Source: Octopus sinensis
Taxonomy: Eukaryota
Direction of reading: 5' to 3'
DNA length: 64,000 nt
Assembly: GCF_006345805.1 (NCBI RefSeq)
Contig: NC_043008.1
Span: 75,950,001-76,014,000 of the forward strand
The position numbers were made by a program, and so were the translations under genes. The notes under the pieces are model-generated. The model worked only from the letters and a program-made list of their open reading frames with translations. It made no database searches and was not told the DNA's origin. Positions 10,026-58,627 of the stretch are shown here, piece by piece (positions within the stretch are counted from its first letter, which is position 1; every line of letters begins with the position of its first letter).

Positions 10026-10182
<157 letters not shown>

Positions 10183-10620
10183 TAAGGCTGCGAGCTGGCA
10201 GAATCATTACCACACCGGGCGAAATGCTTAACGGTATTTTGTCTGCGTTACGTTGTGAGTTCAAATTCCACCGAGGTCGACTTTGCCTTTCATCCTTTCG
10301 GGGTCGATAAATTAAGTACCAGTTACGCACTGGGGTCGATGTAATCGACTTAATACCTATGTCTGTCCTTGTTTGTCCCCTCTATATTTAGCCCCTTGTG
10401 GGTAATAAAGAAATAGGTGTTTTGTCTGCCGCCACGTTCTGAGTTCAAATTCCGCCGAGGTCAACTTTGCCTTTCGTCCTTTCTGAGTCGATTAGATAGG
10501 TACCAGTTACGCCCTGGGATCGATATAATCGACTTAATTCGTTTGTCTGTCCTTGTTTGTCCTCTCTGTGTTTAACCCCTTGTGGGTAGTAAAGAAATAG
10601 GTATTTTGTCTACTGCTAAA
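10183..10620 (+). mobile_element. tRNA-derived SINE (Meta/MESC-like central domain) with tandem-duplicated body
   Basis: A box TGGCAGAATC, B box GAGTTCAAATTC, central GGTCGACTTTGCCTTTCATCCTTTCGGGGTCGATAAATTAAGTACCAG; body repeated from ~10418. Domain name is from recall. Confidence 0.85.
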
Positions 10621-10764
10621 TTCCACAAATTTTTCGCATTTTGGGGTTTATTATGCTCTGGGATCGATGTGCTCGACTTAATCCCATCCTCTAACTTCCA
10701 GGCGTTGAGCCTGCAGTAGAAAGGATTACTATTATTATTATTATTTATTATTATTATTATTATT

Positions 10765-11855
10765 CAGTAGTATATTTTTATAGCGTGCTTTCACTTCACT
10801 ACCGAGCGCAGCTCTGTGTGCCTTGGGTATGTGCTGTGATTTGTTGTGATGCTCTGATGGTTATTGTATGGAAAGTGTTCTGCGTAGGATGTGTGCAGTG
10901 CCTAGTAGTGCAATTTTCTGTATGTTATATGTGTTTGTAAGTCCTGGTGTTTTTGTTATGTATGTGTCTGAATATTTTTTTATCATGCCTAATGCACCTA
11001 CTATAATAGGAATTGTTTCTGTTTTCAGATTCCACATTCTAATTACCTCTATTTCCACGTCTTTGTATTTTGAGAGTTTCTCCATTTCTTTTAGAGACAC
11101 GTTGTCATCAGCCGGTATTGATACATCAATTAGAAAGCATTTTTTTTCTTCATGATCTCTGACAACTATATCTGGTCTGTTGGCCTTAATTTCTCTATCT
11201 GTGTGTATCGGCATATCCCAGAGTATGGTTGCTTTCTCGTTTTCTGTGACCTTTTCTGGTGTGTGCCTATACCATCTTTTTTCTGTTGTTATTCCATAAT
11301 GTTGGCATAGCTTCCAATGTATGTAGGTTCCAACTCTGTCATGTCTGTGAATATATTCCTGCTTAGCCAGGACTGGGCAGCTAGAGATAATATGATTTAT
11401 TGTTTCTTGTCCATCTCCACATATTCTGCAGTTACTTGTGATATTTCTTTTCATTACATGTTTTTGGTAATCCCTCTGTTTCTGCTTTGAGTCCTGAGCT
11501 TCTCAACCATTGGTGGGATTTTTCTTTGTCTATTTCTTTTGCGTTTAGTTTAGTCCTGTATTTACCATGAAGGGGCTTTTCTTGCCATCGTTTTATCATG
11601 GTTCGTTGCTGTTCTATTTTTGTTTTTAGTTTGGATTTCATTTGTTTTATAGCTTTTGTTGTTTCATCATCTTCTTCTTCTTCTTCATGTTTATTAGGTG
11701 GTATGATTTTTTGTTTGTATTTGTCAGCTTCCTTAAATGCTGAGAACAGTTTTTTGTTTTGCTCGTGTTTTGCCGCTATCTGGATTAGTTTTCCTTCCTT
11801 CTGAAGTAGATATTTTTGCAGTCCTATGGTGGTTATTTTATAGTAGTTTTCCAGT
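10765..11855 (-). mobile_element. R4/Dong-like LINE, subfamily B, 5'-truncated
   Basis: WQEKPLHGKY, WLRSSGLKAETEG, CCHC knuckle CRIC..ETINHIISSC, RHD, RPDIVV..LID..K..KY (RLE endonuclease); (TTA)n on both sides. Confidence 0.92.
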
Positions 11856-12004: not shown

Positions 12005-12510
12005 GAGTAAGAAACCAGTGCATGCCATCCAATTGGAATAAAATATACGAAGCTCAATATACCCTTCACTACTACCCGCCTGATGAGGGCACACCAGGGA
12101 CTTGCATCACAAACTTATGTGCGTGACGTATTGATTTCATATCAAAATAAACAGCACATGACCTTACAGATGGGACCCAGTGAGAATTTTCTTCATGTTG
12201 AATAGCCCATCCCGCACTAAAGGTCCCTGAATAAGGGTTATTTAAGGATAATGAACAAAACATTCAGAGGTGAATAATTCAAACCACCAACACATTATTA
12301 TGATGCTCCACCGCTACTCCGGCTAGTGACCAGAGATGCACATATTTTATACCACCAAGGGACATGCTCAATCGATTCTGATTATGCAACTGACATGCAA
12401 ATCTGTGGTTTTAAGAAGAATATTTGCTATAGCCCATCTTTTATACCAAGACAAATCAATGTACATGATAACACTTCCAACCAGTAAGATGAAATGAGAG
12501 CCACTGTCTT
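12005..12510 (-). mobile_element. (TAA)n-associated ~557-bp non-coding element, diverged copy
   Basis: Colinear with the copies at 23325, 40629, 41350, 47356, 55874 and 56781. Confidence 0.85.
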
Positions 12511-14044
12511 GTATATCATTAACAATAATATTAATACACTAACCTTTTTATTTTTGTACCTGTTGTGTGCGTTACACTTAATTCAAAGACGTGGCAAAGC
12601 GAGAGAGAGAGGAAGATAGTAAGAGAGTGAGAGAGTGAAAGCCAAAGGGAGAGTGAGAAAGTCAGAGCGTGAGAGTGAAATGGACTGAGTGATGACGGCG
12701 TTCGTTTTGTGTTTTTAAATGTTTCAGAGAGGAAGTAAGAGAGAAAGAGAGAGAGTAAGAGAGAGAGAGAGAGTGAAAGCTACAGAGAGTGGTGACGGCA
12801 TTCATTTTGTCTTTTTAAATGTTACAGAGAGGACGTAAGAGAGAGAAAAAGTGTGAGAGAGAAAGAGAGTGAGAGCGAGAAAATGTGAGAGAGAAAGACA
12901 GAGGGAAAGAGACAGTGAGTGGTGACGTGTTCATCGCAAGAGAAGTAGATGCATAGATACATATGTACAGTGTCAAATCAAAAGCGGCAGAGAAGGATGA
13001 CACAAAGGACGTGAAAGAGAAATAGGGAAATTGAGAGAGACAGTAGAAACATAAATCCAAAGAAAATTTCATGCGTAGATACATAGACACAGTAAATATT
13101 GGATGTCGGTTTCACTTTTCATTAGCACACGAGGATAAGATTAACTCACAAATGCTTGAGTACTGTACTCACATGCATAATATTAACGTATTCTCAGGGA
13201 GATTCAGCCTCACACAGAATATGACAAGGCTGGTCCCTTTGAATTACAGCTGCAACTAGAGAGAGGAGTGACTCAAAGGAAGGGGTGCTTGTTTTGTTTT
13301 TTCAACCACAGCAAATATTGGAAACCGTATCCTAAACAAAAAGCTGGCTAATACAATCGTATATGGTTTTCAATTGAAGCACCGAATCATTTTGTACATT
13401 TATTGTTTTAATAGGAAGAGAAAAACTGAGAGAGAAAGAGAGTGAGAAAGAAAGAGCTTGAAGACAACTAAAACAATCCTAGTCAGTGGCAAAGAAACAG
13501 GTAGTAAGAGAGAGAGAAAGAGAGATATGAAGTCTTCTTTGTGGACTATCTGAGGCTTACTGTCTGTCTATCTGCCCCTATTTCATGGTATGTGTTTGTG
13601 CACGTGTGCATGTATATGTATGTTTGTATGAATATGATTGTGCGTGTTCCTGTTTTGAATTCCTTTCTGCGACTGACCTTAAACTGCTCTTACAGGCCTA
13701 ATCACACACACACATTTGTTTTAACCCATTTTTATAGCAACCATACACCAAAACACTTGGGCTAAAAAAAAAAAAAAACATCTTTTGGTTTCGGAATACA
13801 ACGTTGTCTTTTTCTTTCTATATATTTTAAGTTAGAATTTCTGGCTCATTTGTTGATGTGTCACCATTACATATCCACATTACATCTTTGGAGATCGGAG
13901 AACCAGTTAGGGGCCCGCTGGATCTCTCTCAGTATACCAGTAAACCACAAAATCGCACCTAGCCAGTATCATCGCTGCCTCAAAGCCCGTCATACATATA
14001 TATGTATTTATGTATGTATGTATGTATGTATGTATGTATGTTTA

Positions 14045-23324: not shown

Positions 23325-23977
23325 GAGTGAGATAGCAGTGCATGCCATCAAAGTGACACTTGGGTAAAATATACGAAGTCCAGTATACCCATCATGACTA
23401 CCCGTCTGATAAGGGTACACTAGGCACGTGCATCACAACCATATACGTGCGACATGGTGATCTGATATCAAGATAAATAGCACATGATCTTGCAGATGGG
23501 CCCAGTTAGAATTTTCTTCTGGTCGAGTAACCCATCCCGCTCAAAAAGTCCCTGAATAAAGGTTGTTTAAGGATGTTCAACAAAACACCTAAGTTTCCAG
23601 AAGTGAATTATTCAAAACCCAAATAATCCCTCTCAACACATGGCTATGATGCTGCCCCACTACTTCAGGATCAGAGATGCACATATCGTCAGCCATTAAG
23701 GGACATGCTCAACTGGTTAAGGTCAAACAACTGACATTAAGGCATTGATGCTGCCCCAGTACTTCTGCTCGTGATCATAGATTCACATGTCGTCAGCCAC
23801 TAAGGGATATGCTCAACTGGTTAAGGTTAAACAACTGACAAGCAAATCTGTGATATGGAGCAGAATATTTGCTGTAGCCCATCTTTTATACCAAGACAAA
23901 ACAATGTACATGATAACACTCCCAATCAGTTAAGATCAGAAGCCACGAGAGCCACTGCCTGGTGCTGCATCAGGGCA
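23325..23977 (-). mobile_element. (TAA)n-associated non-coding element with ~100-bp internal duplication
   Basis: Full-length family copy with (TTA)n on both sides; ~23648-23735 is repeated from ~23748. Confidence 0.9.
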
Positions 23978-25631: not shown

Positions 25632-25695
<64 letters not shown>

Positions 25696-28600
25696 TGTTT
25701 TTTTCTTTCTTTCATCAAATTTTCTTCCGGTTCTCGCCGAGTGTTTTCCATACACCTAGGGCAGAGAAGGGCATTGTATGCATTCCCAGATTAAACACGC
25801 AAATTCAGAGATAAAATATGTATTTAAAAATTAATAAATAAATACATTCATGAATGGATGTTATTTTCACAGCGATAGAGCTCTTCTCAGTACATGAGCC
25901 GTTCCAGTTAATACGATTTTTTGCACTTCCTGTAGGGATGGTAAGCCTGGAATCATTTTCAAATAGCTTTCAGTACCTTTTTTTATCATTCCTAGAGATC
26001 CTACAATCACTGGTACTGTAGTCGCCTTGAAATGCCACATTTTTTTCAATTTCTATTAGCAGGTCTTTATACTTACTAATCTTGTCAAATTCTTTCGCCG
26101 CTAAATTGTGATCACAAGGAATACTCATGTCCATTAACAAACACATCCTTTTTGTCCGATCTTTTATAATAATATCCAGTTTATTAGCTTTTATAGTCCT
26201 GTCGGTCTGCACGAGGAAGTCCCATAGAATCGACACATTTTCTCCCTCAGTCACAGCTTCAGGATGTCAGCGGTTTTGATTTTATAATGCTGACATATTG
26301 TCCAATGTAAATACTGGCCGACTCTGTCATGTCTTGCTTTATATTCTGCAGGTGCTAAGACTCTACACCCTGACATTAGGTGGTCTATTGCTTCAATCTC
26401 ATCGTTACAGAATCGGCATTTTGGGTCAGCTCCATTTTTTATCACATTGGCTTGGTAGTTCCGGGTTAATAAGCTTTGGTCTTGAGCAGCTAATATGAAA
26501 CCTTCACTCTCTGCTTTCAGCCATGAACTTCGTAATAGAGTGAAGTCTTTTAGGTCTTTCATGTTTTGCAACAAGTTTAGCATCCAATCGTTGGTTGCTT
26601 CAAGGTATTTGGCCAGTCCGATTGTGGTGGTTTTGTATGTAAGTTCAAGCTGGATCAAACCTCGGCCTCCCTGAGCTCTGGGAAGGTAAAGGCGATCCAC
26701 GTCTGTCTTTGGATGGTGCATATTATTACAAGTCAGTAGCTTGCAGATTTTTCTGTCAATTTTCATTATTTCACTGGTATTCCAGTTAAGCACATTGAAT
26801 CTATAAAGAACAACTGGTACTGCTAAGGAATTTATGGCTAAAACCTTATTATATACATTCAGCCCAGACTTCAGGACTGCTCGTACTCTTCTATAACAGT
26901 ATTTCCTAACCTTCTCTTTCATGCTTGCATGCTGGATATCAGAGCCTTCATTTATTCCTAGGTATTTATAGGTTTGTTCCTGCTCAAGTTCCTTTATTAC
27001 TATTTCGACATCTAATTCGATTGAACTAGACTTTACCAATTTCCCTTTCTTAAAAATGGCTTTGGCACACTTTTCAAGGCCAAACTTCATCCCGATATCA
27101 TCACTGAATCCTCTCACAGTATGTAATAATCCTTCAAGCTCTTCATCATCTTTGCCATATAGCTTTAGGTCATCCATATAAAATAGATGGCTTATTTTCC
27201 TGTTGTCAATTTTGTAGCCACATCCTGTTCTATTCAGTTCTCTTGAGAGTGGTATTAGTACTATGCAGAAAATTAGTGGTGAAAGTGAGTCACCTTGGAA
27301 AATTCCACAGTTTATGCTAATGTTGTTTGAGTGCAATACTCCATTAGAATGATATAATTGGAGCTTCGTGTTCCATAGTGACATATTATACTTTAAAAAA
27401 TCTGAAATCACAGGAGAAATTTTGAAAATGGCCAGTGGTATCAGAGTCCACGAATGTGATATGCTGTCAAAGGCTTTTTATAATCAATCCATGAAGAGCT
27501 GAGATTTCTACGCTTGTTATGGCAGTTCTCAAGTATCATGCAATTAATTAGGAGCTGATCTTTGCATCCGTATGAGCCTCGTCTGCATCATTTTTGTTCA
27601 GTGGGAAAGAGGTTATTCTTTTCCATAAACGTATATGTCTTCTCTACTAGAATAGATGTCAAGATCTTATATGTAGTAGATAAACATGTTATAGGCCGGT
27701 AATTTTCTGGTTCTTTCATTTTGTTATTTTTGGGGTGGAGATAAGTAATATCATTTGCCATCCAATGGGGCGTTTTTTTCGAGTCTTTCACAACACTATT
27801 AAATAGTATTACTAACATTTTGTGTGCGGACGAGAGTGATGAGAGCCAGAAATTTGGTACTCTATCAATACAAGGGGATTTCCACTTATGAGCTTCCGTT
27901 AGTGCCCTCTTTAGGTCGGCGTTTGAGATGTCTTCCCATCCATGTTCTTGTAGACTTTTGTAGTCATCTTGAGTGCGTTTGATCCACTCTGCAGTTTCAG
28001 TGTATGGCTTCTCATCACTCCAGATCCCCTTCCAAAACTTTTCAACTTCTTCCATTAGGGGTGGAATTTCAATGGTTATTTTTTCTTTCCCTATTTCCCT
28101 GTAAAATGGTTTGGCATTGGATTTGAACATCTTATTTTCTTTGTTGAATTTGATTCTTTTCTCAAATTTGCGTATTCTCTGAGCTTTTGCTTGAACTTTC
28201 TATTTTGTTGAGTGTCCATATTTTCTCACAATCTTCCTGCCTTTTCTTGATCTTACATCATTTCCAAAGATTAGCTCAGTTAATATTGATATCTCCCTTC
28301 GCAATGATTCAATTTGATTTTCTTTTCGAATTTGGTATTGTTGGCTTTTTGGGTGTTAAACAGCGTATTTCGATTACCTTAGCGACAGAGTAAATAATTT
28401 CATTTAATTTATTAAGATCGGGTTTTAGTTGGTGTATGATTTCCTGTGTAACGCAGTTGCCATTTTTTATTTGTGTTTTATGTTGGGGTGCATTTGAGAG
28501 TTTATGGAGTGGTTCCCTATCATTCATAGTTGTATGGTCTACAACTGCAAACTCATTCAGAACTTCTTGTTTCATTTCAATGACAGATTTTCTGTGTTGT

Positions 28601-29290
28601 TCAACAAACATGTGGTCTTCAAATTCTGTTTCGACATCATTTTCCGGGCTGTTTTTTCTAGGGTCATTATACTTTACTTTTTCTTCAGGATCTTGAGTCG
28701 CTTCGGCAGATGGTCGCCTTTCAGACAATGCTTGAGGACCAACTTTCCTCTCCTCAGCTTCGTTATTTCTTCCCTGACTTAAATTTAGGTCATTCTCTAC
28801 CTCTTTTTTAATAGGGGTTAATTCCGCATCTGTGAGTCTAGTATTTCTGCAGATATCTCTTCTAACATTTGCTAATCTGTTTTCATCCAGGTTTGGTCTG
28901 CTAGCTGGATTCCGGCTCCTCCAAATTCTGTAGGAGTTTGCAGTGTGTTTTTCTTGGGTTGGCCTACTTAATGCAAAGTAATAAGCATATATTACTTCTT
29001 TATATTCTTCCCGGTTCCATTTAGTTCTTTTACTTTTTTGATTTTCTGGTCGTTGTGGTGGTGAACTTTGGGGGCTTAATTTGAGACAAATCCCGTTTAA
29101 GTGACCTTCCAGGTTCGTATTCGGGGAAGATATTCTGCCATTTGAACATTTTCCGCCATCAGGCTGGCAGCCTCCTGACGGGCGCGCTTCCTTTATAACC
29201 ATTGGACAAGCGATTCGGTGTACTGTTAGAAATTTTCTTTTCAAGTAAATTTAAATTATTATTAAGTTTTCATTGAAAAGAAAAGAAATA
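25696..29290 (-). mobile_element. R4/Dong-like LINE, subfamily A, near full length, decayed (copy 1)
   Basis: Broken single ORF: RTKWNREEYKEVIYAYY N-terminus, NYRPITCL, GIFQGDSLSPLIF, YMDDLKLY, RLYLPRAQGGRGL, ESEGFILAAQDQ, CCHC, RHD, RLE; 3' UTR runs into an (AAT)n tail. Confidence 0.95.
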
Positions 29291-29301
29291 AATAAATAAA
29301 A

Positions 29302-29717
29302 GTTTTAACCACTAATTTTCATATAGGGACCTCGTTCATCATCATTAGCAGCAGCAATGCTAAAACTACCGGGGCTGCTGATGCTGCTAATGATGATGAA
29401 CGAGGCCCCTATATGAAAATTAGTGGTTAAAACTGTCACTACTACTACTATTGCTACCTCTGCTGTTGTTGCTGCTGCTACTGCTGCTGTTGCCACCGCT
29501 GCTGCTGCTACTGGTACTATCACTGCTGCTGCATTGTCAGCAGTTGCAGCGGCAGCGGTAGTAGCAATAGTAATGGCAGCAGCAACAGCAGCAGTAGTAG
29601 TAGCATCAACAGCATCTGCAGCAGCAGTGATAGTACCAGTAGTAGCAGCAGCGGTGGCAACAGCAGCAGTGGCAGCAGCAACAACAGCAGAGGTAGCAAT
29701 AGTAGTAGTAGTGACAG
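29302..29717. repeat. Two adjacent inverted repeats in a CAG/CTG-rich tract
   Basis: 29302-29354 pairs with ~29378-29432; 29433-29533 pairs with ~29617-29717. Confidence 0.85.
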
Positions 29718-30605
29718 CAGCAGCAGCAGTGGTAGCAGCGGCAGTAGTAGTAGTGGCCGCAGTTGTAGCAGCAGGAGTGGTAGCAGCAGCAGCAGTAGTA
29801 GTGGCCGCAGTTGTAGCAGTAGCAGCAGCAGTAGTAGTAGCAGTAGTAGCTACAGCAGCAGCAGCGCCAGTAGCAGTAGTAGTAGTAAGTGTGGCTCATG
29901 TAATTTTTTTTTTTTAGGTGGGATGGGGTTCTATCAGTAAAAAAAAGTTCAAATGTCTAGCGGACAGTGACCTTAACCTTAAGAAAAATTAAGGAAGGCC
30001 GAGTTACTCTGTTCTGTATTATTTGTGAATAGAGAAGTTGTATTCGACCGGACAGAATCTATAATTAGTATCATTATTTTTTTCCATGTGCGTTTGTGTT
30101 ATTGCAATAAAAAGTGTTTGCATATTTCGGGTAAGGTAATATTGTAGAGATTGAAGTTGACTTTTCTAGAGATGTTTGTATGTCCAGTTAGAAGAACAGG
30201 TGTTTTTGCAATAAAAAGTATATGTTTACATTTATATTTGAATATTCAGTGTGGAAGCAAAGAAAAGTCAGATTTTCATAGAAAGTTTTAAGGTTCACCA
30301 AAGATAGTCTTTTGTAAGTCCACGCAAAGAAAAGCGTGATGTTTTTAGAAAGAGAAAAAAAAAGGGATGTTTACAGTGGCAATTGTGGGTATTAAATCTT
30401 TTAAAGCTGATCGATTGTGTGTTTGAAAACTGTAGATATGTAAATTTGTAAATTTCTTAACTTATTTTGTAGATATTCCAGTCTTTGAGAGTTTTTTTTC
30501 CCCGTTGCTAAACTGGGTCATATTAGTGTTTCTATGGCTTTCGGCTACTGAATTGTCAGAGCAGCGACAATATTATTATTATCATTACTATTATTGTTAT
30601 TATTA

Positions 30606-40628: not shown

Positions 40629-41136
40629 GAGTGAGAGAGCAGTTCATGCCATCAAAGTGACAGTGGGGTAAAATATACGAAGCCCAATATACCCATCATG
40701 ACTACCCGTCTGATAAGGGCACACCAGGCACATGCATCACAACCATATGTGCGCGGCATGGTGATCTCATATCAAGTTAAACTGTACATGACCTTGCAGG
40801 TGGGGCCCAGTTAGAATTTTCTTCAGGTTGAGTAGCCCATCCCGCTCAAAAGGTCCCTGAATAAGGGTTGTTTAAGGATGTTGAAAAACCCACCCATGTC
40901 TCCACAGGTGAATTATTCAAATCCCAAAGAATCCCTCTCAACACATGGCTATGATGCTCCCCCACTACTTCTGCTCGTGATCAGAGATGCACATATCGTC
41001 AGCCACTAAGGGACATGCTCAACTGGTTAAGGTCAAACAACTGACAAGCAAATCTGTGGTATTGAGCAGAATATTTGCTGTAGCCCATCTTTTATACCAA
41101 GACAGAACAATGTACATGATAACACTTCCAATCAGT
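40629..41136 (-). mobile_element. (TAA)n-associated non-coding element, slightly 5'-truncated
   Basis: Family copy flanked by (TTA)n. Confidence 0.9.
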
Positions 41137-41153
41137 TATTATTATTATTATTA

Positions 41154-41349: not shown

Positions 41350-41875
41350 GAGTGAGATAGCAGTGCATGCCATCAAAGTGACAGTGGGGTAAAATATACA
41401 AAGTCCATTATACCAATGATGACTACTGGCCTGATAAGGGTACACTAAGAATATGCATCACAACCATATGTGCGTGACATAGTGATCTCATATCAAGATA
41501 AACAGCACATGACCTTGCAGATGGGGCCCAGTTAGAATTCTTCTCTGGTCGAGTAACCCATCTTACTCAAAAAGCCCCTGAATAAGGGTTGTTTAAGGAT
41601 GTTTAACAAAACACCTATGTTTCCAGAGGTGAATTATTCAAACCACAAAAAATCCCTCAAAGCACATGCCTAATATGCTCCCCCGCCTTTTCTACTCGTG
41701 ATCAGAGGTGCACATATCGGCAGCCACTAAGAGACGTCAAACAACTGAGAAGCAAATCTGTAGTATTGAGCAGAATATTTGCTGTAGCCATCTTTTATAG
41801 CAAGACAAAACAATGTACATTATAAGACTTCCAATCAGTTAAAACCAGAAGCCACGAGAGCCACTGCATCAGGGT
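41350..41875 (-). mobile_element. (TAA)n-associated non-coding element
   Basis: Family copy flanked by (TTA)n; small deletions. Confidence 0.9.
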
Positions 41876-41878
41876 ATG

Positions 41879-45627: not shown

Positions 45628-45681
<54 letters not shown>

Positions 45682-45738
45682 ATTATTATTAATATTAATA
45701 TTATTAATATTATTATTATTATTATTGTTGTTGTTGTT

Positions 45739-45813
45739 CAGGTCACTACTTGAAATCTTGGGATTAGTAGCCCATGCTCTTAACCCAAGGGCATATGGCG
45801 TAGTGAGCTGCCC
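45739..45813. mobile_element. Split, inverted tRNA-like SINE head
   Basis: Plus 45789-45805 GGGCATATGGCGTAGTG (acceptor stem and A box); minus 45785-45739 GGTTAAGAGCATGGGCTACTAATCCCAAG (end of D arm plus anticodon arm). Confidence 0.6.
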
Positions 45814-45862
<49 letters not shown>

Positions 45863-45876
45863 TTAATAATATTAAT

Positions 45877-45919
<43 letters not shown>

Positions 45920-45944
45920 TAATAATAATAATAATAACAATAAT

Positions 45945-46018
<74 letters not shown>

Positions 46019-46041
46019 TAATACTAATAATAATAATAATG

Positions 46042-46097
<56 letters not shown>

Positions 46098-47344: not shown

Positions 47345-47355
47345 TTATTATTACT

Positions 47356-47912
47356 GAGTAAAAACTAGTGCTTGTCATCAAAGTGACACTGGGATAAAAT
47401 ACACGAAGCCCTGTATACCCATTACGACTATCCGTCTGATAAAGATACACCAGACTGATGCATTACAACCGTAGGTGCGCGACATGGTGAACTCATATCA
47501 AGATAAACAGCGTATGACCTTGTAGGTGGGGCACAGTTAGAATTTTCTTCATATCGAGTAGCCCATCCGACTCAAAAGTTCCCTGAATAAGAGTTGTTTA
47601 AGGATGTTGAACGAAAAACCCATGTTTCCAAAGGTGTATCATCAAAATCCCTTAAGAATACCTCTCAACACATGGCTATGATATCCCCCAGTTCTTCTTC
47701 TTGTGACCAGAGATGCCTTTATCATCAGCGACTAAGTGACATGCTCAAGTGGTTAAGGTCAAACAACTGACAAGCAAATCTGTGGTATTGAGCAGAATAT
47801 TTACTGTAGCCCATACCAAGGAAAACCTATGTATATGTTCACACACCCAATCAATTAAGAAAGGAAGCCATGAAAGCCACGGATTCTCATCTTAACTGAT
47901 TGGAAGTGTTAT
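47356..47912 (-). mobile_element. (TAA)n-associated non-coding element, diverged, with a short inverted 5' piece
   Basis: Family copy to ~47880; ~47886-47912 (tcttaactgattggaagtgttat) is an inverted copy of the head. Confidence 0.85.
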
Positions 47913-54798: not shown

Positions 54799-55284
54799 TA
54801 AAGGGTGTCCCAGAATAAATGATGATTTTAATGAAATTGCATGCATTTTTTTAACAACTCACTTTTATTTTTGTTTATCATATTTAATATGTTTTAAAAG
54901 TGAATAAAGTTTGGATTTCGTTTATAATTTTACTTTCATTCTTGTTCGATCCCTCTTATTTGTCCATGACAGCGTTTTTTTTCAATTTGGCAGCAATCCT
55001 TTACTTTACCTCCATCCACAAGAAGGAGCAATCGTTTAGCTGAGCTTAAAGGACACATTCGGTTAGCAGTGCAGGAGCTAAATCCTGAAAAGCTTCAAAA
55101 TATTCTTCACAATGCTAAGGAAATGTTTGAAGTACTCAGGGACGCAGATATACTGAAACTTTTCAATAAAGGATTGATGTAAGATTTATAAATCTGTTTT
55201 GGTAATCAACATAAAATTAAGAGTGTTTTTATTTTATTTGCTCAATTTCATTGAATCAGATAGTTAATTCTGGAACGCCCAGTA
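54799..55284. mobile_element. Tc1/mariner-derived MITE
   Basis: Imperfect TIRs TAAAGGGTGTCCCAGAATAAAT and AGTTAATTCTGGAACGCCCAGTA with terminal TA. Confidence 0.6.
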
Positions 55285-55419
55285 TGGTGTAATGTTGATA
55301 GTTGTCGCGCTGCACGAGTAACTATTAAAATCATAGGTCCTCTCCTCGTAAATATTTTATATTTTCGTTAAGCATATTGTATCAAGAAGTATATTTTCCA
55401 AAATGTATCATTCCTTTAT

Positions 55420-55540
55420 AGGCGTGGTTGTGTGGTTGAAAAGCTTGTTCTGCAACCGTATCGCGTTGGGTTCAGTCTAAATATGCGGCCCGTTGGGCAG
55501 TTCATTTTCATTACAACTCGGTGCCGACCAAAGCCTTTTG
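55420..55540 (+). mobile_element. Degenerate CORE-like SINE head
   Basis: aggcgtggttgtgtggt...gggttcagtc...ttgggcag...ccgaccaaagcctt. Confidence 0.6.
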
Positions 55541-55806
55541 CATTATATAATTGCCATTACTGTATTGATATATAAAATAACACATACAACTCATATATTA
55601 TTGTCATATAATAAACAAACAGACGTTTGTGGATGAAATTGATATTTTTGTCTACTTCAGTTATACTTATTATAAAATCCAGACATACAGAAGGATAAAT
55701 CTATATATTAGCACTTTGAATGTGGTTCCCGTGAAAGAGTAAAAGTAATAACTCAATCTACGACGGATATTAGTGTTAGGATACATTATTATTATTATTA
55801 TTATCA

Positions 55807-55860
<54 letters not shown>

Positions 55861-55873
55861 TATTATTATTATT

Positions 55874-56660
55874 GAGTGAGAGAGCAGTGCATGCCATCAA
55901 AGTGACACTGGGGTAAAATATACGAAGCCCAGTATACCCATCATGACTACCCGTCTGATAAGGGTACACCAGGCACATGCATCACAACCATATGTGCACC
56001 ACATGGTGATCTCATATCAAGATGAACAGCACATGACCTTGCAGGTGGGGGCCCAGTTAGAAATATCTTCAGGTTGAGTAGCCCATCCCGCTCAAAAGGT
56101 CCCTGAATAAGGGTTGTTTAAGGATGTTGAAAGAACAACCCATGTTTCCAAAGGTGAATTATCCAAACCCCAAAAAATCCCTCTCAACACATGGCTATGA
56201 TGCTCCCCCACTACTTCTGCTCGTGATCAGAGATGCACATATCGTCAGCCACTAAGGGACAGGCTCAACTGGTAAAGGTCAAACAACTGACAAGAAAATC
56301 TGTGGTATTGAGCAGACTATTTGCTGTAGCCCATCTTTTATACCAAGACAAAACAATGTACATGATAACACTTCCAATCAGTTAAGATCAGGAGCCATGA
56401 GAGCCACTGCCTGGTACTGCATCAGGGCACTGCTCCCCCACTACTTCTGCTCGTGATCAGAGATGCACATATCGTCAGCCACTAAGGGACAGGCTCAACT
56501 GGTAAAGGTCAAACAACTGACAAGCAAATCTGTGGTATTGAGCAGAATATTTGCTGTAGCCCATCTTTTATACCAAGACAAAACAATGTACATGATAACA
56601 CTTCCAATCAGTTAAGATCAGGAGCCATGAGAGCCACTGCCTGGTACTGCATCAGGGCAC
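55874..56660 (-). mobile_element. (TAA)n-associated non-coding element with 230-bp head duplication
   Basis: Monomer 55874-56430; 56201-56430 is repeated at 56431-56660; (TTA)n on both sides. Confidence 0.92.
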
Positions 56661-56725
<65 letters not shown>

Positions 56726-56780
56726 TATTATTATTATTATTATTATTTATTATTATTATTATTATATTATTATTATTATT

Positions 56781-57567
56781 GAGTGAGAGAGCAGTGCATG
56801 CCATCAAAGTGACACTGGGGTAAAATATACGAAGCCCAGTATACCCATCATGACTACCCGTCTGATAAGGGTACACCAGGCACATGCATCACAACCATAT
56901 GTGCACCACATGGTGATCTCATATCAAGATGAACAGCACATGACCTTGCAGGTGGGGGCCCAGTTAGAAATATCTTCAGGTTGAGTAGCCCATCCCGCTC
57001 AAAAGGTCCCTGAATAAGGGTTGTTTAAGGATGTTGAAAGAACAACCCATGTTTCCAAAGGTGAATTATCCAAACCCCAAAAAATCCCTCTCAACACATG
57101 GCTATGATGCTCCCCCACTACTTCTGCTCGTGATCAGAGATGCACATATCGTCAGCCACTAAGGGACAGGCTCAACTGGTAAAGGTCAAACAACTGACAA
57201 GAAAATCTGTGGTATTGAGCAGACTATTTGCTGTAGCCCATCTTTTATACCAAGACAAAACAATGTACATGATAACACTTCCAATCAGTTAAGATCAGGA
57301 GCCATGAGAGCCACTGCCTGGTACTGCATCAGGGCACTGCTCCCCCACTACTTCTGCTCGTGATCAGAGATGCACATATCGTCAGCCACTAAGGGACAGG
57401 CTCAACTGGTAAAGGTCAAACAACTGACAAGCAAATCTGTGGTATTGAGCAGAATATTTGCTGTAGCCCATCTTTTATACCAAGACAAAACAATGTACAT
57501 GATAACACTTCCAATCAGTTAAGATCAGGAGCCATGAGAGCCACTGCCTGGTACTGCATCAGGGCAC
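56781..57567 (-). mobile_element. Apparently identical tandem copy of 55874-56660 (907-bp period)
   Basis: Same length and the same diagnostic substitutions in both sub-repeats. Confidence 0.92.
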
Positions 57568-57644
<77 letters not shown>

Positions 57645-57678
57645 ATTATTATTAATATTATTATTACTATTATTATTA

Positions 57679-57751
<73 letters not shown>

Positions 57752-58627
57752 CATTATTCAATCCAAGGAAAAAACAATTTCCTTCAAACAGATGGAAAAC
57801 TTCACTTGTTCTTTAATTAAATACCACAATATAGTAAAGAAAAAATCGGGACATAAAATGGTATAATTTCAATATATATTAATATTAAAGGAAATAGAGA
57901 AATACAATTGACTTATCATAAAATTATTAAGATTATGATATGATACAATTACAATATAATATAAAATAATATAATATAATATAATACAATATAACAAATA
58001 ATTAAATCAAACATATATCCTACAATTTGTTTTGATGCATATCCATTCGTGAGTTTACAAAAAAATTCACGTTTAGGTATATAAATCTCGTCACAAAAAT
58101 AGACAAAAATGTCATGCAACAAAGGCTAAATCATAAAACAGTCTGATTTAATATATACCTATGTTTACAAACGTGAGCGTAAATAATTTTATATATTATA
58201 AAATCAAAACGAAAATTCTAATAGAAAAATATATTAAATGGACAAATCAGTTAGAACGGTCATAAAATCTTTTTATGCATCTTTCATAATATTAATCTAA
58301 AAATAAAATTTATATAATATAAATTTATATAAAATTTATATAATATTTAGTATGTTAAGAATTTATGGTGGAGTAGAAAATTTACATATAAGCACTATGT
58401 AGATATATTGACGTCTCATAGTGATACTTTTATCCAAGGTACACTTGTTTAATATATTGTTTTTTGAAAAGATATTTCTTCAATGGATATATTATATAAA
58501 ATATCATGAAATATCAAATACTGAAAACGGAGAGATCCAATGGGTATAAATGAATTTATGAAACATACAAACATATACTAAATACACAGACGAACGGAAA
58601 ACGCAGAAGGTCAGTTATCGACCAGAG

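Follow-up and report, generated by a model that had tools for sequence, protein, structure and literature searches.

The stretch of Octopus sinensis DNA analysed here, 64,000 nucleotides of contig NC_043008.1 and hereafter called the window, holds a short repeat that occurs seven times on one strand and is associated with (TAA)n microsatellites. This raises the question of what kind of mobile element the repeat is, and which machinery places it there. A preliminary description, made from the sequence by eye, had proposed a SINE3-type element with a head derived from 5S rRNA, which shares its microsatellite target with neighbouring LINEs of the restriction-like endonuclease (RLE) type. When the 787-nt copy at 56781-57567 was used as a blastn query against the window, all seven minus-strand copies that had been listed were recovered (7/7 places), and they are arranged with their flanks as follows.

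57568..57758, minus strand: target microsatellite, a (TAA)n array that abuts the 5' end on its upstream side
57338..57567, minus strand: head duplication, in which unit positions 1-230 are present once more in tandem on the 5' side of the full unit; period 230, 2.0 copies, 99% match
56781..57337, minus strand: full 557-nt unit, the reference copy, with its 5' end at 57337 and its 3' end at 56781
56661..56780, minus strand: (AAT)n that is both the tail of the upstream copy and the 5' flank of the downstream one
55874..56660, minus strand: second 787-nt copy (head 1-230 plus full unit), a duplicate of 56781-57567 at 100% identity
55785..55873, minus strand: (AAT)n tail downstream of the 55874 copy
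47354..47880, minus strand: older copy, 13% from consensus, from about unit position 24 to the 3' end; blastn 84% over 47367-47880
41350..41876, minus strand: older copy at 11% from consensus, a small deletion lying close to its 5' end; blastn 84% over 41350-41867, and a GCCCTGATGCAG-like start at 41864-41875
40629..41138, minus strand: 5'-truncated copy, unit positions 47-557, 2.5% from consensus, (TAA)n on both sides; blastn 95%
23325..23977, minus strand: copy with the full 5' end, unit positions 2-230 and then 139-557 (a 92-nt internal re-copy), (TAA)n on both sides; blastn 89-93%
12005..12513, minus strand: old copy, unit positions 15-557, 15.5% from consensus; blastn 78%

The unit of the element measures 555-557 nt and recurs across the genome as a discrete 555-nt sequence, in agreement with the ~557 bp first given for its length, although the two copies within 55874-57567 are 787 nt long because their head is duplicated. 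Copies begin with (A/G)TGCCCTGATGCAG and end with CTCTCTCACTC, after which (AAT)n follows. The start sequence GCCCTGATGCAG, with at most one mismatch, occurs six times in the window against 0.10 expected, a count reached by 0 of 100 shuffles, and 35 of 41 sampled copies share this 5' end, which bears out the earlier statement that full copies have a single one. Read on the minus strand, the region 55700-57800 passes from (TAA)n into a 230-nt segment starting GTGCCCTGATGCAG, then into the same 230 nt again together with 327 nt ending CTCTCTCACTC, and then into (AAT)n, after which the whole 787-nt arrangement is repeated. Each of the two 787-nt copies consists of unit positions 1-230 followed by the full unit 1-557, with 120 nt of (TAA)n as the spacer between them, and Tandem Repeats Finder reported a period of 230 (2.0 copies, 99% match) at 56201-56661 and at 57108-57568. 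The two copies are 100% identical to each other, differ by 2.7% from the family consensus and have an identical interruption in the first ~33 nt of their tails; they are therefore the product of one duplication rather than of two insertions, and the seven copies in the window represent at most six independent insertions. Unequal exchange between (TAA)n arrays, re-insertion of a neighbour transcript or an assembly artefact are possible causes of this pair.

The ends of the copies are highly regular. Among the 41 copies with a complete 3' end, (AAT)n follows directly in 40, and the exception is the oldest copy in the window, at 12005, whose flank has decayed; the earlier statement that the 3' end always lies at or near (AAT)n consequently applies to every copy in the window but that one. 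Upstream of the 35 complete 5' ends, perfect (TAA)n was found in 25 cases, degenerate (TAA/TGA)n in two, and partial repeats of the element's own head in eight. The last group, which includes the 787-nt pair of the window as two of its eight members, has parts of the head (the first 16-230 nt) repeated one to three times, with 1-5 filler bases in between. At the head joints, nucleotide 1-2 is connected to an internal position ~33, 128-138, 267 or 331 nt downstream, and such joints are frequent in sequencing runs X3, X4 and X8. Because the head repeats always restart at nucleotide 1, this position marks a true RNA end, and the RNA of the element is likely, judging from these junctions, to have a defined 5' end there. 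Truncated copies start at unit positions 9, 15, 21, 47, 87 and 139 while the 3' end is constant. The element thereby displays the hallmarks of retroposition, namely a fixed 3' end, variable 5' truncation and dispersed copies of graded age; target-site duplications are unreadable within a microsatellite. At most of the full-copy loci with a (TAA)n 5' flank, no upstream element is present within 1.5 kb.

The family was then followed through the assembly (2.72 Gb, 13,516 contigs). The 557-nt unit, used as the query, returned 3947 first-look candidates, and the 40 that were scored are full-length, 96-97% identical and spread over more than 20 contigs. Relative to a 555-nt consensus built from 43 copies (28 genomic loci and the window), 29 copies differ by 0.4-1.4%, and older copies by 4-15.5%. 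Five copies, all in a TAA context, were present in 600 kb sampled at fixed coordinates on 20 contigs, and extrapolation from this sample gives a copy number of ~23,000 (Poisson range ~7,000-53,000). Some loci hold two or three copies in tandem, and these differ in age, as at locus L004, where the neighbours are 0.5%, 5.5% and 8.9% from consensus; they therefore reflect successive insertions into tails rather than duplications of arrays. Near-identical words of the unit are also present in sequencing runs bearing four different organism labels; in four such runs, which between them carry four labels, contigs continue past either end of the unit into TAA-type repeats. In the raw DNA reads of run X24, 4 of 12.9 million reads partly fit the element and none fits the flank, a result that was set aside. 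The papers searched contain no description of a (TAA)n-specific non-autonomous element, and octopus repeat libraries could well already include the family without a class.

Two further repeats were met along the way. A tRNA-derived SINE dimer lies at 10233-10611 in the window and presumably resembles the common octopus SINE. In the 600-kb sample, two of the seven matches belong to a different family of ~490 bp with terminal and sub-terminal inverted repeats, for which about 5,900 first-look candidates were found and whose copies are ~86% alike. The centre of this inverted-repeat family matches positions 102-271 of the element at 96.5%, consensus against consensus, and of the six differences between them, two are due to CpG decay in the inverted-repeat family. 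Apparently, to judge from this match, a DNA-transposon-like element of ~490 bp captured a fragment of an element copy that was already inserted.

The candidates for the machinery that moves the element are close at hand, for two LINE families are present in the window on the same strand as the element, each with a (TAA)n end.

25695..30580, minus strand: LINE "B", RT-bearing, with frameshifts, (TAA)n at both ends and the polarity of the element
10763..11502, minus strand: 3' part of LINE "A", with a CCHC finger and an RPD..D restriction-like endonuclease motif, ending in (TAA)n

An intact genomic copy of LINE A is 3967 nt long and has a single ORF of 1226 aa, in which the RVT_1 domain occupies residues 522-784 and a zinc finger residues 1006-1058, and in which no AP-endonuclease domain was found. 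The C-terminal part of this ORF holds the CCHC finger (CRIC..H....C) followed by RPDIVV...LIDVS, a restriction-like endonuclease signature. For the RT of LINE B, the closest solved structures are R2 proteins (E = 1e-12). LINE A is extremely abundant and young: its endonuclease domain yields 87,005 first-look candidates, and its 5' ends are 99-100% identical. Both LINEs have the features by which R4/Dong elements are recognised, that is, a single ORF, an RT followed by CCHC and PD-(D/E)xK endonuclease motifs, no AP endonuclease and a (TAA)n target, and on the basis of domain order, target and literature they fit the Dong/R4 type. Dong elements have been described as targeting (TAA)n in moth, mosquito and snail (PMC3812793), Dong-R4 has been reported from octopus genomes (PMC13282606, PMC9115989), and it is given as the most numerous group of recently active LINEs in Octopus vulgaris (PMC13282606).

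The element and these LINEs agree in where and how they insert. The (TAA)n target and strand polarity of the element are those of LINE A and LINE B, and (TAA)n lies on both sides of LINE A in the sense polarity, as it does with the element; the shared microsatellite target that had been suggested for the RLE LINEs was thus found at the flanks of both. One polarity is shared by 20 of the 23 TAA-type arrays in the window, and the seven element copies and six LINE 3' ends (four of A, two of B) are all on the minus strand. Moreover, 15 of 30 full-length copies of LINE A show their own first ~12-35 nt repeated in part, one to four times in tandem, between (TAA)n and the true 5' end with short GA-rich fillers, so that reiterated-head junctions are common to LINE A (15/30) and the element (8/35). 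Since the repeats restart at the same first nucleotide in both LINE A and the element, we read that nucleotide as the real 5' end of the RNA template. These reiterated heads are the best evidence here, circumstantial as it is, that the same kind of machinery may integrate LINE and element. The sequences themselves are unrelated: between the element and LINE A, LINE B or a LINE C fragment, no similarity was found at either end beyond the (TAA)n tail (best blastn E 0.30), as the preliminary description had already noted for the 3' tails of subfamilies A and B, and no 5'-region motif of substance is shared among the element, LINE A and LINE B.

Taken together, the element is most probably an ORF-less, 555-nt non-autonomous non-LTR retrotransposon that inserts into (TAA)n in one polarity and is likely copied in trans by the RT and restriction-like endonuclease of Dong/R4-type LINEs in the same genome. 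In the mechanism proposed here, a (TAA)n array would first be nicked by the LINE protein; the element RNA would then pair through its (UAA)n tail with the repeat at the nick, where target-primed reverse transcription would begin. The polymerase, on arriving at the 5' end of the template, would often re-prime further in and re-copy the first 16-230 nt one or more times; the R2 reverse transcriptase is known for template jumping. Each new copy would add a fresh (TAA)n tail as a further target, so that same-strand clusters such as the window, with its 20 of 23 arrays, all element copies and all LINE 3' ends in one orientation, would build up. Because no other sequence is shared with the LINEs examined, recognition would operate through the (UAA)n tail, perhaps aided by structure; a shared 3' tail, the classical proof of a SINE-LINE pair, is missing here, and recognition by the tail, like mobilisation in trans, is therefore something that we infer. 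One locus at first seemed to offer a proof of co-templating, a chimera of an element head fragment fused to the 5' end of LINE A (L086), and was rejected: the LINE matches the query at 99.7%, but the head fragment beside it has diverged and is old, with an inverted copy of itself close by, and a LINE inserted beside an old element copy with a deletion of the target is the better reading.

Alternatively, a LINE without target specificity, such as an RTE or CR1 element that leaves a microsatellite tail, might have mobilised the element, in which case the (TAA)n flanks would be tails and not targets. An octopus RTE has been reported to end in a microsatellite (PMC9115989), and the element has no tail homology to the Dong-type LINEs. 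Such an origin is nevertheless improbable, since (TAA)n also precedes the 5' end in 27 of the 35 full copies, mostly at loci where no second element lies within 1.5 kb upstream, and since the reiterated-head junctions of the element recur in LINE A.

The Dong element of Bombyx has been described as carrying a tested 5' HDV-like ribozyme, which cuts read-through transcripts exactly at the (TAA)n junction (PMC3774820), and by analogy a parasite of Dong might be expected to use the same 5' processing. The sense RNA of the element folds with a z-score of -4.0 (body alone -3.4), whereas the reverse complement scores +0.9; an RNAalifold run on 17 copies lent no covariation support (term +0.55, double changes in 4 of 92 pairs), and the sense-strand preference is accordingly one of thermodynamic z-scores only. 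At the element's 5' end, no perfect 6-7-bp partner for an HDV-like P1 occurs within 120 nt, and no hammerhead or twister was matched in Rfam at E<=10 on 56781-57600. A loose home-made double-pseudoknot descriptor, which had no positive control, gave 322 redundant matches in the element against a shuffle mean of 153, and 5 against 6 in LINE A and 12 against 38 in LINE B, and so told nothing apart from shuffled sequence. A stricter HDV descriptor, likewise without a positive control, gave 0 in the element, in LINE A, in LINE B and in all shuffles, and Rfam recognised no ribozyme at the 5' ends of LINE A and LINE B. The element RNA might equally well come from a Pol II promoter inside the element, or from read-through transcripts processed in some other way. 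A bolder proposal, which we hold to be rather unlikely, is that the head (the first ~100-230 nt) is an RNA module not recognised by current libraries, either a new or divergent ribozyme cutting at the (UAA)n/element junction or an internal promoter, and that the element obtained it without any part played by the LINE. In that case the element would mimic the LINE by convergence, with no relation in sequence, and would be recognised only via its (UAA)n tail, and the reiterated heads would be a record of template jumping by Dong-type RTs.

In addition to its ends, the coding capacity and the possible Pol III promoter of the element were considered. The longest ATG ORF of the element has 50 aa, which amounts to no coding capacity, and the element has no terminal inverted repeat. 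ARAGORN predicted 0 tRNAs in the whole window, and Rfam at the gathering threshold recognised no Pol III-type head in the window. Within one mismatch, the element contains no A or B boxes except for two poor A-box-like strings. The earlier statement that the element lacks an ORF and a tRNA B box was borne out, and a recognisable tRNA-derived or other Pol III head was rejected on these results.

There remains the 5S rRNA, from which the head of a SINE3-type SINE would derive, together with an internal Pol III promoter made of boxes A, IE and C. In favour of this origin are colinear anchors that had been picked by eye only, and a hairpin at positions 37-59 (CTTCTGATC/GATTGGAAG) that is superficially like helix III of 5S. 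With the 5S genes of the same genome as the reference, however, the local alignment score of the head was 24, within the range of dinucleotide shuffles (21.9 +/- 3.8; 24 was reached by 282 of 1000), while the reverse complement of 5S scored 22. In semi-global alignment, 640 and 372 of 1000 shuffles did at least as well as the head, and when 43 heads were made into an nhmmer profile and run against six 5S loci, nothing was found on the 5S genes at E<=100, the two matches obtained (E = 16 and 29) lying outside the genes. On 56781-57600, Rfam at E<=10 returned five chance-level matches (two SNORD97 and three lncRNA fragments) and no 5S. Moreover, the genome's own 5S differs at the anchor positions from the vertebrate-like 5S of the by-eye alignment, and the consensus contains TTTT at 77, 333 and 511, a sequence that tends to stop Pol III. 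The by-eye colinearity is thus no better than that of shuffled sequence, the outcome that had been named in advance as speaking against it, and the 5S-derived head has to be given up. The SINE3 assignment falls with it, as the head lacks 5S homology and no tail is shared with LINE A, B or C; an origin of this kind can be given hardly any credence, and the element is best read as not being a SINE3. Under a strict Pol III definition, which asks for a head from tRNA, 7SL, 5S or snRNA, it would not seem from its sequence to have the head of a SINE at all.

A passenger copied by Dong/R4-type LINEs must also be distinguished from a mere 3' UTR or 5'-truncated remnant of a longer LINE, a suggestion to which its position in the same arrays as the LINEs and the existence of 5'-truncated copies might lend some appeal. 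It is very improbable, since 35 of 41 copies have one 5' end that abuts (TAA)n or repeats of that same end, in four runs the loose ends on the 5' side consist of (TAA)n, LINE A, B and C show no similarity to the element, and the head repeats always restart at a true RNA end, nucleotide 1. Longer copies running 5' into a LINE ORF, which would have pointed to such a remnant, were not seen: contigs of four runs exit into (TAA)n. Propagation as DNA, whether through unequal crossing-over of (TAA)n arrays or through segmental duplication, accounts for the window pair, which is 100% identical with its proximal tail included, and several loci do hold two or three tandem copies, but as an explanation of the family it is scarcely credible, given copies on more than 20 contigs, tandem neighbours of differing age, and 5' truncations with constant 3' ends that fit reverse transcription.

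Target-specific LINEs usually live in small numbers in rDNA or at other safe sites; the parasites known for them, the SIDEs of R2, are to our knowledge few and descend from the LINE itself. The element described here would be a LINE parasite that is unrelated in sequence to its host, has ~10^4 copies and lands in a microsatellite that is regenerated with each insertion. It would show concretely how (TAA)n-rich repeat islands of a single strand orientation grow in a large invertebrate genome, and would help to account for some of the SINEs that reports on octopus genomes leave unclassified. If recognition needs only a (UAA)n tail, the pair would be a simple natural system for the study of template choice by RLE-type reverse transcriptases, enzymes that are now used for site-specific gene insertion. 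In addition, the reiterated 5' heads, in LINE and parasite alike, would be a readable footprint of the polymerase at the end of its template.

Among known systems, SINE3 elements and HaSE3, as presented in PMC3272025, are similarly short, non-coding and LINE-dependent; their heads align to 5S (boxes A, IE and C) and their tails match the partner LINE, whereas the element shows neither feature in comparison with LINE A, B and C. The LINE/SINE pairs of the UnaL2 type, with TGTAA repeats, likewise have a 3' simple-repeat tail that likely pairs with the nicked target, but according to the account in PMC3747384 they also share a 3' stem-loop and are not microsatellite-specific, unlike the element. 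The SIDEs of R2, in the description of PMC3414825 and PMC3774820, resemble it more closely, in that they are ORF-less, use the machinery of a target-specific RLE LINE together with its target and orientation, and have a precise 5' end. They differ in having arisen from their LINE by internal deletion, with the ribozyme and the 3' UTR of R2 retained, while the element has no sequence in common with the LINEs examined; they are, moreover, present in few copies in rDNA, as against ~10^4 copies in microsatellites, and no HDV-like fold was found in the element with descriptors that had no positive control. Dong, of the R4 clade, is autonomous, with an ORF for RT and RLE and, in Bombyx, a tested 5' HDV-like ribozyme as reported in PMC3774820, whereas the element has no ORF and no detectable ribozyme. 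With Dong, as portrayed in PMC3812793 and PMC3774820, the element nonetheless shares the (TAA)n target, the polarity, the (TAA)n tail and a 5' end that lies exactly at the repeat junction.

One family that shares sequence with the 555-nt non-coding element is a MITE-like one of about 490 bp (loci L159-L178), with ends CACTGTGTAAC... and ...GTTACACAGTG, sub-terminal inverted repeats of about 72 nt, and about 5,900 first-look candidates, that is, genome search matches counted before scoring. Its 170-nt core corresponds, consensus against consensus, to element positions 102-271 at 96.5% identity; of the six differences, two are CpG decays in the MITE-like sequence. Matches of this kind at sampled loci are as follows.

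L125:4534-4697, minus strand, MITE-like match to the element
L137:4869-5038, plus strand, MITE-like match to the element

Because the CpG decays lie on the MITE side, the comparison suggests that the MITE-like family captured a copy of the element that was already inserted.

At the 5' junctions of LINE A, an RLE-type LINE flanked by (TAA)n, half of the full-length copies (15 of the 30 at loci L069-L098) reiterate part of their own start: one to four partial repeats of the first ~12-35 nt (ACACCGGGGGAC...) in tandem, with short GA-rich fillers, follow (TAA)n and precede the true 5' end. Many of the remaining copies have a GA-rich filler of 3-5 nt. Examples of reiterated heads are as follows.

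L070:1430-1500, reiterated LINE A head
L075, reiterated LINE A head
L097, reiterated LINE A head

At L086:1170-1500, a fragment of the element's head (positions 1 to ~60), old and diverged, adjoins a young LINE A copy at its 5' end. About 150 nt upstream, with a change from (ATT)n to (AAT)n in between, the same head fragment is found inverted (to ~125); the TAA array here is the site of a palindromic rearrangement.

Within the window, a ~90-nt segment (45726-45813) lies between (ATT)n and (AAT)n arrays of opposite polarity at 45628-46096; nowhere else do the large TAA arrays there switch polarity. As well, the apparently unique flank downstream of the element copy at 55874 (55250-55784) is itself an older repeat, with 536 first-look candidates at 78-82% identity. 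Another repeat is a tRNA-derived SINE, probably the common octopus SINE, whose 5' side on the plus strand adjoins TAA-type and GAT-type repeats at 10062-10232.

Window 10233-10611, two tandem SINE units, 184-nt period, 86% match

In X24, a raw-read DNA run of 2026, only four of 12.9 million reads partly fit a stretch that includes the high-copy element; X24 bears the species label of the best-matching runs, and its label or sampling is out of line with the other runs.

The 3' part of a third RLE-type family, LINE C, is present upstream of a LINE A copy at L068 (reverse strand), where it likewise terminates in (TAA)n and where, in the same array, the tail of LINE A is followed by a copy of the element. 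LINE C and LINE B, the window's other RLE-type LINE, have CCCTAGG...TCGGCGAG in common at their 3' ends.
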